A stretch of 3,624 nucleotides of DNA, counting the filler, from an uncultured virus (IMG/VR IMGVR_UViG_2061766007_000545) (Duplodnaviria; Heunggongvirae; Uroviricota; Caudoviricetes). It is 3 parts of one record of this genome, joined end to end, with 100 filler letters (N's around TTAATTAATTAA, not from the genome) between each part and the next. Parts side by side here need not be neighbours in the genome. Positions count along the whole stretch, not along the records: positions 2,752 to 3,624 come from IMGVR_UViG_2061766007_000545; 2 more parts are not named here. The stretch is one strand, 5' to 3'. Of the stretch, positions 1,091 to 3,594 are shown one piece after another. A program made the translations under genes and the position numbers. The notes below the pieces were generated by a model. That model was not told the DNA's origin and did no database searches. It saw only the letters and a program-made list of their open reading frames with translations. Position 1 is the first letter of the stretch; each line of letters begins with the position of its first letter.

Positions 1091-1122
1091 ATATATAGAA
1101 AATGAAAGAAGGGGAAAAGAAG

Positions 1123-2086
1123 ATGCTTAATAAAGATGGAATTAGAGAGCTTGCTTATTTGGTTAGAGTAGATGAGGTAGTTCCAATGGATGCCGACCGT
1201 CTTGAGTGTGCGCGCATCGGAGGTTGGAATTGCGTTGTTGGTAAGGGTGAGTTTAAGGCGGGAGATGTTGGAGTTTACTTTGAGATTGACTCAAAGCTTC
1301 CTGAGGTTGCACCTTTTAATGAGATGGAGTTTTTGAAGTCTAAGCACTATAGAATTAAGACTCAGAAGATTCGTGGCGTATATTCTCAGGGATTGCTTAT
1401 GCCTGTTTCTGCTTTTGGGTGGAAGATTTCTTCTCTTGTTTCTCTTAATGGTGATTGGAGTCCTATCCCCACTGGTAATGTTGAGATTGATAATGAGTGG
1501 CATAAGGCTGATGACGAGTCTCGTTTCTTGACTGCGCGCCTTGGGGTAACTTATGCGGTTGCCGAGGATAATGTGCGTAAGTCGGGAAAGCTGGGTAAGA
1601 GCGGAAAGTTTTTGAGTGCTATGGCGCATCATCCTCGTTTTGCGAAGTCGAANNNNNNNNNNTATCAAGTATGATATTGAGAATAAAATGCGCGACTATC
1701 TTGAGAAGAATAAGGATATAGATTTTGTGTGCTGGCAGGGTGAGATTTGCGCGCCCGGTATTCAGGCTAACCCTCATTCTTTGAAGGACTTGCACTTCTA
1801 TTGCTTCCATATGACCGATAGTAAGACTGGTCGATTTGATATTCGTGATGCAGCAAAGATTTGGCGCGAGTATGGAATGGAGATAGTACCGATTGATGAG
1901 GAGTTGTATGTATTGCCGGACGACTTCGAGGAGTTTAAGGCAACTGCAGATGGGTACTATGATGCTTCTGTATGCGAGGGGAATCCGAAGTGCGCGCGAG
2001 AGGGATATGTATACTATAAGTCTACCGATCCTACCTTTAGTTTTAAGAATGTATCTAGAAAGTATCTTGCAAAACACGACAATTAA
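1123..2086 (+). CDS. ATP-dependent RNA ligase, Rnl2-like / DRB0094 family; middle lost in the 1653-1662 gap
   Basis: N-terminal domain matches the family pattern: RELAYLVRVDEVVPMDADRLECARIGGWNCVVGKGEFKAGDVGVYFEIDSKLP...RIKTQKIRGVYSQGLLMP. After the gap are nucleotidyltransferase motifs III (QGEICAPGIQAN), IIIa (FYCF), IV (REGYV) and V (SFKNVS), then TAA 2084-2086. Motif I (KxDG) is not visible and presumably lies in the gap. ATG 1123 is preferred over 1102 because of RBS spacing. Confidence 0.85.
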
Positions 2087-2111: not shown

Positions 2112-2144
2112 AAGTCAAAAATAAATTTTATTTTTGACTTTTTT
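2112..2144 (+). terminator. AT-rich inverted repeat followed by a T tract; possible terminator of the ligase gene and/or an operator
   Basis: AAGTCAAAAATAAA (2112-2125), T, TTTATTTTTGACTT (2127-2140) are perfect 14-bp arms, followed by TTTT; starts 26 nt after the ligase stop. The stem is AU-rich, so terminator strength is uncertain. Confidence 0.45.
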
Positions 2145-2162
2145 CAGATTTTATGGTATAAT
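2134..2162 (+). promoter_or_regulatory. Near-consensus sigma-70/sigma-A promoter with extended -10
   Basis: TTGACT (2134-2139), 17-nt spacer, TG at 2154-2155, TATAAT (2157-2162); RBS AAGGGG 2182-2187. Confidence 0.85.
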
Positions 2163-2836: not shown

Positions 2837-3003
2837 CAGCAGAAGAAACTCGTTATAAAGAGAATAAGGATTACCGCGAGGGATGGGACGCTGGCTTTCA
2901 AAAAGCTTCGCAAGGTAATATCAATATGTGGGGCAAGGCTCGTCAAGCTGGTTATGATGANNNNNNNNNNCATATTGATATTGAAAGTGTAAGACAAGTT
3001 TAA
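2833..3003 (+). CDS. Hypothetical protein interrupted by the 2961-2970 gap (MTAEETRYKENKDYREGWDAGFQKASQGNINMWGKARQAGYD...HIDIESVRQV*)
   Basis: RBS AAGGAGG 2819-2825, ATG 2833, frame open on both sides of the gap, TAA 3001-3003. True gap length is unknown, so the two halves may belong to different genes. Confidence 0.65.
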   Translation: MTAEETRYKENKDYREGWDAGFQKASQGNINMWGKARQAGYDXXXXHIDIESVRQV

Positions 3004-3005
3004 TC

Positions 3006-3084
3006 GGGGCTACGATGGGCGTTCGACAGCACTTAAACCCAAAGCGGACTGTGCTGGACGCGGGTTCGAATCCCGCTAGCTCCA
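3006..3084 (+). ncRNA. tmRNA-like RNA reduced to the tRNA-like domain (no mRNA-like domain)
   Basis: Acceptor stem GGGGCTA (3006-3012) / TAGCTCC (3077-3083) with G3:U70 and discriminator A3084. Stemless D-loop CGATGGGCGTTCGA. Helix 2a CAGCAC (3027-3032) / GTGCTG (3051-3056) closing an 18-nt loop. GAC linker, then T arm GCGGG-TTCGAAT-CCCGC (3060-3076). CCA is not encoded. Confidence 0.8.
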
Positions 3085-3110
3085 TATCGACAATAGAAGG
3101 AGAACGAATA

Positions 3111-3349
3111 ATGGATCCATTCACCTACTCAATAGGCTATCAAAATGGCTTCGAAGATGCAAAAAAGCAGTATGAAGTTAAATGGTACCCATATCCAGAC
3201 GAATTACCCGAGCAATGGCGCGGTGTATTGGTGTGGTGCGCAGAATTAAAGAATGTATACTGTGCTTATTATGAGCATGGGCGTTGGTATATTTTTGGTG
3301 CAGATAACCGATTACTTACAGAAGAAGTAAGCTATTGGGCGAGTGCGCC
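3111..3349 (+). CDS. DUF551-like phage protein, 3' end in gap
   Basis: RBS GAAGGAG 3096-3102 and ATG 3111. KWYPYPDELPE...VLVW...AYY...W...EVSYWASA follows the W..xxLPE...VLV...VTHWMPLP pattern of DUF551 proteins. Confidence 0.7.
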
Positions 3350-3408
3350 NNNNNNNNNNNNNNNNNNNNNNNNNNNNNNNNNNNNNNNNNNNNNNNNNNN
3401 NNNNNNNG

Positions 3409-3594
3409 GGTAAACGAGTAGGCTATACACAAGGTTATAGTGAAGCACTTAAGAACAGTCAGTATAAGCCAACTACTGTTTCTACATTACCTGTATCTGA
3501 GTTGCGTGCCCGCATTAAACAGCTTGATGATATAGTAAGAAAGCAATATAAAAAGATTCGAAGATTGGAGAAGAAAAAAGAATGGATAAAGTAA
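3409..3594 (+). CDS. Hypothetical protein, 5'-truncated, with a basic coiled-coil C-terminus
   Basis: Open from the 3350-3407 gap to TAA 3592-3594 (GKRVGYTQGYSEALKN...IRRLEKKKEWIK*). Confidence 0.65.
   Translation, partial: GKRVGYTQGYSEALKNSQYKPTTVSTLPVSELRARIKQLDDIVRKQYKKIRRLEKKKEWIK

Follow-up and report, generated by a model that had tools for sequence, protein, structure and literature searches.

The stretch of DNA analysed here (the window, 3,624 nucleotides, nt) belongs to the uncultured virus IMGVR_UViG_2061766007_000545, and on its plus strand, at positions 3006-3084, it holds a 79-nt element. The evidence supports this element as the gene of a transfer-messenger RNA (tmRNA) which is non-permuted, lacks the message and consists of the transfer RNA (tRNA)-like domain (TLD), carried by a fragment of a rumen phage. 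Such elements are called mini-tmRNAs below. The parts of the element were assigned as follows:

3006-3084, plus strand: mini-tmRNA gene (TLD only), from the sequence and from matches to the Rfam tmRNA model RF00023 (48.9 bits) and to the family covariance model R1 (58.1 bits)
3006-3012, plus strand: 5′ strand of the acceptor stem, GGGGCTA, paired with TAGCTCC at 3077-3083 (7 base pairs, bp; third pair G:U)
3013-3027, plus strand: stemless D-loop analogue CGATGGGCG with the TTCGAC connector, from alignment to the tmRNA consensus
3027-3056, plus strand: helix 2a, 6 bp, formed by C3027:G3056 and by AGCAC (3028-3032) with GTGCT (3051-3055), from pairing in the family and in the window's subgroup
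3033-3050, plus strand: 18-nt loop TTAAACCCAAAGCGGACT inside helix 2a, with the motif AAA.CC.AAG.G.A conserved in Bacillota-associated members
3060-3076, plus strand: T arm, GCGGG / TTCGAAT / CCCGC, with a 5-bp stem (3060-3064 with 3072-3076) and its loop at 3065-3071
3084, plus strand: discriminator A (equivalent of A73), an A in 86 of 86 family sequences

The D-loop analogue occupies 3013-3021 (9 nt, no stem) and TTCGAC 3022-3027, and GGAC at 3056-3059 lies between the 3′ strand of helix 2a and the T stem. Both marks of alanine identity, G3:U70 and the discriminator A, were present in the sequence, there was no N within 3006-3084, and CCA was not encoded, TAT being the next three nucleotides. 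The preliminary description, made before any database search, had already reported both ends of ssrA in non-permuted order, three fully paired helices (7 bp including G3:U, 6 bp and 5 bp) and just 18 nt, free of N, between the strands of helix 2a; the sequence agreed on every count, and the order of the ends was also borne out by the end-to-end match to RF00023.

This match covered model positions 1-374 with an E value of 1.5e-17, the gathering threshold being 47 bits, and 310 internal positions of the 374 were replaced by 16 nt, so that the Infernal-type check proposed in the preliminary description gave a tmRNA match to both ends with a large internal deletion. The stemless D-loop, the GAC...GGA connector, helix 2a and the T arm were all matched to the consensus of the model. 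A resume codon and a tag reading frame with its stop were absent from the 18 nt between the strands of helix 2a, and the pseudoknots PK1-PK4 were absent together with the 310 missing positions. The covariance model R1 recognised the element with an E value of 7.5e-11.

The preliminary description had also considered that a tRNA model might fit the element. ARAGORN called no gene in the window. Five related phage records, including a 100% complete one of 144,875 bp, served for comparison; the mini-tmRNAs of four of these records scored 23.3-27.7 bits with the tRNA model (RF00005), under its cut-off of 29 bits, and those of all five scored 43-57 bits with the tmRNA model. Since, in addition, the loop of 18 nt is no 7-nt anticodon loop, the tRNA identity was rejected. 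In the wider family ARAGORN named the mini-tmRNA at 2 of 80 loci, wrongly in both cases, as a 324-nt "tmRNA" (L039) and as a tRNA-Arg (L064). A blastn search of the window region against isolate phages gave no match, and the matches of the element by itself were limited to the 3′ ends of full or permuted tmRNAs; three other family members gave nothing against isolates at E 1e-6. No Y-RNA family was seen among the matches listed up to E 10 in the Rfam search of the window.

Homologues were collected from viral contigs with a pattern in which just GGGG, TTCGAC, GGAC and the T-loop core were fixed, and U70, A73, both strands of helix 2a and the 3′ acceptor strand were left free. At least 120 viral contigs with at least 85 distinct mini-tmRNAs were matched. 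A scan restricted to GGGGA starts gave 14 loci, compared with 13 such sequences among the first 120 contigs, so the total for the strict pattern is probably not far above 120; looser variants (the type of Mycobacterium phage DS6A, and other T stems) come on top of this count. When 86 distinct sequences of 67-89 nt, the window included, were brought into register by the fixed motifs alone, with pairing not used to align them, the acceptor pairs formed in 84-86 of them, the T stem paired in all 86 with four pair types at its two free positions, and pairs 1-5 of helix 2a formed in 86, 82, 81, 84 and 73 of 86, with all four Watson-Crick types at each. G3:U70 was found in 85 of 86 sequences, the exception being a copy with an insertion or deletion. 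The near-invariance of U70 and A73, which both lay outside the search pattern, would favour selection for alanine chargeability and, of the three functions suggested in the preliminary description, those that involve a charged RNA. CCA was encoded in 29 of 84 distinct members, and most members had a 3-4-bp hairpin, e.g. CCGCAYGCGG, where the window has its 18-nt loop.

The model-based alignment to R1 likewise comprised 86 sequences (those of the window and of DS6A, and 84 viral-contig sequences). Here the acceptor pairs formed in 86 of 86 sequences, and 99.2% of 1616 cells paired as against 75.4% in shuffles, with two-sided changes in 13 of 19 pairs; the covariation score was 0.598 compared with 0.113 in shuffles, a value reached by 0 of 500 of them. 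Sliding the partners by 1-3 columns left at most 57% of the cells paired. RNAalifold gave the same three helices from this alignment, which was itself fitted to the R1 model. A covarying family with short inserts was thus recovered by the search for homologues that the preliminary description had suggested.

The short form at this site was also seen in independent assemblies. Positions 2971-3349 were present in bovine-gut metagenome runs, with no RNA run among the matches listed, and contigs from three studies besides the probable source (X5, X6 and X7) bridged the element in the same short form. X5 covered 2972-3339 with no listed change within the 79 nt, X6 covered 2972-3086 with one letter different, and X7 covered 2985-3265 with C3045T as the sole change within the element. 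This change, the only one found in the loop of the independent contigs, agrees with the consensus of the related subgroup sequences. None of the three contigs had a long insert between the strands of helix 2a, and there was no full-length tmRNA at the site in these three other assemblies or in seven related contigs; the short form is not an assembly collapse, a risk that had been raised from the start. Across the independent contigs the 79-nt element carried 0-1 changes and the adjoining 230-nt open reading frame (ORF, 3111-3340) 13-17 (about 13 in X5, 17 in X6). Together with the covariation in the 86 sequences and in the subgroup described next, this bears out the early suggestion of selection rather than decay. 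The related strain represented by the contig of run X6 had 637 extra nt directly 3′ of the mini-tmRNA, between window positions 3086 and 3111.

The window's own loop type defined a smaller group. A loop-specific pattern matched six viral contigs (L125-L130) and five metagenome contigs, of which L187 and L191 carried mini-tmRNAs not among the sequences of L125-L130; the window's own contig was not among the matches of the metagenome scan. The same loop type was present in L183, a genome bin of Bacillota. As they have the promoter/leader cassette described below in common, the contigs of this subgroup are taken as relatives of the window phage, which is probably a Bacillota-infecting member of a rumen subgroup. 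Among eight distinct sequences of the subgroup 97.9% of the cells paired compared with 79.6% in shuffles, and two of the three unpaired cells were due to a one-column misalignment of L183. Compensatory changes were found in 9 of 18 pairs, helix 2a included, and in the T stem they affected four of five pairs, among them three G:C pairs which are usually fixed. Unlike the stems, the D-loop and the 18-nt loop were almost invariant, and AAA.CC.AAG.G.A was invariant in 12 of 12 sequences from Bacillota-associated sources. Given this near-invariance the 18-nt loop is a selected sequence and not a mere linker; the preliminary description, which had treated these nucleotides as a loop that simply replaced the message and pseudoknots, has to be amended here.

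One genome per species was scanned with a looser pattern in 185,579 bacterial species, and 48 places were matched. R1 scored at least 47 bits at 26 of these, across many phyla, and 33-41 bits at five; the remaining 17 had no R1 match at the site. A full-length tmRNA (127-170 bits) was found elsewhere in all five mini-bearing bacterial genomes tested. In the same five genomes the mini-tmRNAs were no closer to the tmRNA ends of their own host than to those of other hosts, so mimicry of the own host's tmRNA was rejected. Without an excess of own-host similarity the mini-tmRNAs cannot serve as attP identity blocks, and recent deletion of a local ssrA is argued against as well; an attP or integration fragment derived from ssrA was therefore rejected, there being also no integrase in the window and the 5′ half of the gene being present too. 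Longer forms of 83-87 nt with lower scores (33-41 bits) were observed in L139/L146 (Microvirga), L144, L149 and L180; their inserts hold GCATGTAG- or ACGTAG-like stretches, and perhaps they represent another, or an intermediate, type of shortened tmRNA in bacterial genomes.

The other features of the window, again all on the plus strand, are listed below:

1102-2086, plus strand: RNA ligase gene, split by a 10-N gap (PF21189, 2.9e-21; phrog_968 'RNA ligase', 4.5e-27 and 3.2e-17)
2134-2162, plus strand: promoter-like site TTGACT-17-TATAAT with TG extension, from the consensus match only
2971-3003, plus strand: 3′ end (HIDIESVRQV*) of a small upstream ORF, from codon arithmetic and the loose ends of contigs X5 and X6
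3111-3349, plus strand: co-oriented downstream ORF with a strong ribosome-binding site, GAAGGAG, at 3097-3103, starting 26 nt past the element; no family match

The element starts 2 nt past the stop codon at 3001-3003, and the RNA ligase gene lies 0.9 kb upstream of it in the window as written. The ligase has the OB domain of PF21189, and nothing in the window corresponds to the central part (positions of about 115-265) of the PHROG profile. Transcription of the unit to which the element belongs is likely to begin from the site at 2134-2162. An extended -10, leader and ribosome-binding-site cassette, TATAATATATATAGAAAAT...GGGGAAAA, was found at 1085-1118 and 2157-2190 (together with 1058-1111 and 2124-2196), each time before a gene, and recurred several times per contig in the related contigs L126-L130 and L188-L191; this repeated cassette is likely to represent a phage promoter family. 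Small ORFs at 2833-2960, 3111-3349 and 3409-3594 open with a similar motif (Y.EGWDAGF / IGYQNGF / VGYTQGY), which suggests that the ORFs around the element are paralogous, and none of the three had a match in Pfam or PHROG. The same searches found no integrase in the window.

The window is a gapped, locally mis-ordered scaffold (2652-2970 and 3350-3407). In the independent contigs 2626-2651 stood directly before 2971, and the sequence from 2752 on followed immediately at about 3349. Each of the joins 2651|2971, 3349|2752 (short of about 3 nt) and 2960|3408 keeps the reading frame, so the natural order would be ...2651, 2971-3349, 2752-2960, 3408..., and the true upstream gene of the element is a 56-codon ORF made up of 2517-2651 and 2971-3003. 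Two identical 100-nt blocks, 214-313 and 2652-2751, each consist of 44 N, TTAATTAATTAA and 44 N, and resemble contig linkers with stops in six frames more than natural DNA; of the remaining gaps, three are of 10 N (919-928, 1652-1661 and 2961-2970) and one is of 58 N (3350-3407).

In the complete 144,875-bp relative the mini-tmRNA was located at 41,669-41,750, between a tRNA gene that ends 8 nt before it and a second that begins 15 nt past it, within a same-strand set of 19 tRNA genes. A tRNA gene was found within about 700 nt of the mini-tmRNA in all five related records, and tRNA genes lay no more than 3 kb away at 15 of 80 family loci. The nearest ORFs were mostly co-oriented with the mini-tmRNA (62 versus 14 upstream, 60 versus 12 downstream). 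Neither SmpB nor a full-length tmRNA was encoded in any of the five related records.

Neighbouring proteins varied. In L130 an RNA-repair nucleotidyltransferase, RlaP (541-1329), flanks the mini-tmRNA, and RlaP was found in one of the five related records; in L071 the neighbour is an RNA ligase (RNA_ligase). A DUF2828/DUF7788 protein (4256-5779; phrog_850, 'RNA-binding protein') flanks the mini-tmRNA in L125; it had no sequence match in the PDB, and it may be related to TROVE. A 794-aa neighbour in L130 and a 530-aa neighbour in L126 had no family match. A linkage with RNA ligase was rejected, as in the complete relative 42 kb separate the PHA02142-type ligase and the mini-tmRNA, and the adjacency is not conserved. 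No protein partner was conserved across the family, the neighbours being as diverse as head, replication, lysis and repair genes; this is expected if the RNA acts on host machinery. An integrase was nearby in one neighbour cluster only.

In one high-GC phage lineage (L002, L018, L044, L056, L065 and others) the mini-tmRNA sits within a late operon with the order portal, prohead protease, 71-aa ORF, mini-tmRNA, and the major capsid gene about 190 nt downstream; this prohead protease/major capsid lineage comprises 15-19 loci with 7-8 types of mini-tmRNA. A second, weak match of the tmRNA model (27.7 bits) in G002 (L136) at 18415-18493 was rejected as a tmRNA because the tRNA model explains it better (61.1 bits). 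In L123 (Stenotrophomonas phage Marzo) an annotated 375-nt tmRNA (2908-3280) overlaps the annotated tRNA-Leu and tRNA-Thr; Rfam reads a permuted, two-piece tmRNA there (119 bits), and the boundaries of the record look off.

The function that we lean towards, by a modest balance of the evidence, is that of an alanine-chargeable RNA which would bind host SmpB and EF-Tu and compete with host tmRNA, so that no degradation tag is added. The mini-tmRNA would be made as part of the transcript of a co-oriented operon or tRNA array, from which tRNA-processing enzymes of the host would excise it, with CCA added where it is not encoded. With G3:U70 and A73 it would be a substrate for host alanyl-tRNA synthetase (AlaRS), and the D-loop analogue, helix 2a and T arm would present the surface recognised by SmpB and EF-Tu. 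It could not complete trans-translation, because resume codon, tag frame and pseudoknots are absent; it would instead compete with the full-length host tmRNA for SmpB and stalled ribosomes, and proteins made during infection would escape ssrA tagging. The absence of SmpB and full tmRNA from the five related records points to dependence on host machinery, and the full tmRNA in all five mini-bearing bacterial genomes suggests that the presumed target coexists with the mini-tmRNA; both speak for competition.

Published work is consistent with such a role. In Hudson, Lau and Williams (2014, PMC4131195) the ssrA of Mycobacterium phage DS6A is listed as "TLD only", and a molecule similar to it, chargeable or not, is described, citing Mao et al. 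(2009), as a strong inhibitor of tmRNA which may act by titrating SmpB. According to the 2025 paper on the tmRNA database (PMC11915505), the endogenous tmRNA of E. coli is inhibited by the DS6A form. Himeno et al. (2014, PMC3985003) describe a 59-nt TLD fragment, its halves linked through a UUCG loop, that was crystallised together with SmpB; they also report that the deformed D arm contacts SmpB extensively and that the invariant G-U pair is the AlaRS determinant.

Several points weigh against competition for SmpB as the function, or against the evidence behind it. The lowest-energy fold of the single window sequence reached -32.4 kcal/mol compared with -26.9 kcal/mol for the tRNA-like fold, and the T stem had an ensemble probability of 0.03 on this sequence alone; as the tRNA-like fold is not the minimum-energy one, the support for it is comparative and not thermodynamic. 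TTCGAC, GGAC and the T loop formed part of the search pattern, and their conservation in the family is therefore not independent evidence. The conserved 18-nt loop is unexplained by competition for SmpB, expression is presumed, and processing, alanylation and SmpB binding are extrapolated from tmRNA biology. The inhibition experiment on tmRNA that Mao and colleagues are said to have performed in 2009 is known to us second-hand, through the papers that cite it. Finally, inhibition did not need chargeability by the account of these citing papers, and a pure SmpB sponge would not explain why G3:U70 and A73 are nearly invariant.

This last point keeps productive tag-free rescue alive, which we regard as unlikely, if still a serious candidate. 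The alanylated mini-tmRNA with SmpB and EF-Tu would enter stalled ribosomes and accept the nascent chain, and the peptidyl-RNA would then be released by drop-off with Pth or by hydrolysis of the ArfB type; ribosomes would be kept available, for instance when host immunity cuts tRNAs or mRNAs, without phage proteins being marked for proteolysis. That G3:U70 and A73 hardly vary speaks for the importance of charging, the place of the mini-tmRNA within phage tRNA arrays (the complete relative and 15 of 80 loci) fits in with it, and message-less organellar tmRNAs are conserved together with SmpB (PMC11915505). The release mechanism is, on the other hand, hypothetical, tag-less forms argue against bacterial-type trans-translation (PMC3985003), and the cited heterologous test gave inhibition, not rescue. 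The RNA-repair neighbours in the subgroup, namely the ligase (window, also L071), RlaP (L130) and DUF2828/phrog_850 (L125), would agree with such rescue; the RNA-ligase adjacency counts for less, being lost in the complete relative at a distance of 42 kb. In a fuller version, which we hold to be equally doubtful, mini-tmRNAs would be more than SmpB sponges, namely charged tag-free rescuers that enter ribosomes, within a phage toolkit of tRNA arrays, RNA ligase, RlaP and DUF2828-type proteins which sustains translation while host immunity cuts tRNAs or mRNAs; the 18-nt loop of the Bacillota/rumen subgroup would dock a factor for releasing the peptidyl-RNA or tuning ribosome entry.

The repair-gene neighbours bear equally on a role in RNA damage and repair, which seems improbable to us. 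Here the RNA would be a bait or substrate for host nucleases that cleave tRNA or tmRNA, or the partner of a phage repair protein, like Y RNA with Ro60/TROVE. ROT/TROVE proteins work with a tRNA-like partner and RlaP with RNA ligases (jumbo-phage review, PMC7824862), and a protein could bind to the conserved 18-nt loop. Most family loci, however, have no repair neighbour; the element offers no anticodon loop to anticodon nucleases and lacks the long Ro-binding terminal stem of Y RNAs, no Y-RNA family was among the Rfam matches listed, and G3:U70 and A73 would not be required.

An unusual alanine tRNA or alanine donor, without D arm, serving decoding or non-ribosomal aminoacyl transfer, would account for the tRNA-like size, for an acceptor stem and T arm with alanine identity and for the location among tRNA genes in the relatives; it is nonetheless very improbable, given the lack of an ARAGORN call, the lower scores of four relatives with the tRNA model than with the tmRNA model, the 18-nt loop in place of a 7-nt anticodon loop, and a D-loop and GAC...GGA connector of tmRNA type. 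That the element is non-functional (an assembly collapse, an ssrA fragment decaying after imprecise excision, or an attP copy of a host tmRNA end) is hardly credible: ssrA is indeed a frequent integration site of phages, which take along its 3′ end, and the scaffold is gapped and mis-ordered, but contigs of three other studies bridge the short form, the stems covary with both gene ends present, and neither own-host similarity (five genomes) nor the rare integrase neighbours point to integration.

Trans-translation is the main ribosome-rescue and quality-control pathway of bacteria, and the dealings of phages with it are poorly known. Found in at least 120 viral contigs and in 26 bacterial genomes over many phyla, the mini-tmRNA class is rare per genome yet phylogenetically broad, and selection for alanine identity would make it testable whether phages block or hijack ssrA tagging.

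Comparison with known systems places the element among reduced tmRNAs. Y RNAs (YrlA; PMC4201824) are likewise small non-coding tRNA mimics which occur in phages and near RNA-repair genes, but YrlA lacks an acceptor stem that is chargeable and has alanine identity, and its terminal stem is what binds Ro60. With bacterial tmRNA (RF00023) the window element has in common the acceptor stem with G3:U70, the stemless D-loop, the GAC/GGA connector, helix 2a and the T arm, and differs in lacking resume codon, tag frame and pseudoknots, that is, 310 of 374 model positions. The engineered TLD fragment (PDB 2CZJ, as described in PMC3985003) follows the same design, 25 nt from the 5′ end and 34 nt from the 3′ end with a short loop; its loop is an artificial UUCG and it has no CCA, whereas the window element has a natural, conserved 18-nt loop. 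Message-less tmRNAs of organelles, in jakobid mitochondria and in the plastids of Mallomonadaceae (about 65 bp), also consist of the TLD only and presumably depend on SmpB (PMC11915505, PMC3985003). These are the sole tmRNA of the organelle and often permuted, whereas the phage form occurs alongside a complete tmRNA of the host.

The closest counterpart is the DS6A element. The preliminary description had left it open whether such phage RNAs were already described; as PMC4131195 and PMC11915505 make clear, the "TLD only" form of DS6A had been published, and the tmRNA database, the largest curated one, has 79 phage sequences in all and just nine "Standard, no CDS" sequences (PMC11915505). We found no paper on a phage-wide family of such RNAs beyond DS6A, subscription journals being outside the coverage of the search. 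R1 places the DS6A element at JN698994 28478-28557 with 62.2 bits; with the Rfam tmRNA model it stays below the gathering threshold, and by blastn its sole matches were DS6A records. Both RNAs are about 80 nt long and phage-encoded, have both tmRNA ends in standard order, G3:U70 and A73, a T arm and a short insert that closes helix 2a, and are recognised by R1 (62.2 and 58.1 bits). Judged by size (79 nt), layout and this shared model, the window element is thus of a kind already known from DS6A. What is new here, so far as comparison of sequences can tell, is the conserved 18-nt loop in a rumen subgroup that probably infects Bacillota, and the setting among tRNA and RNA-repair genes. In DS6A, GTCGAC and GGCAC take the place of the TTCGAC and GGAC of the window, and the DS6A host belongs to the Actinomycetota, whereas that of the window phage is probably one of the Bacillota. 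The insert of DS6A is a small CCGCACGCGG hairpin, as in most family members, in contrast to the conserved 18-nt loop of the window, which forms no stable hairpin.

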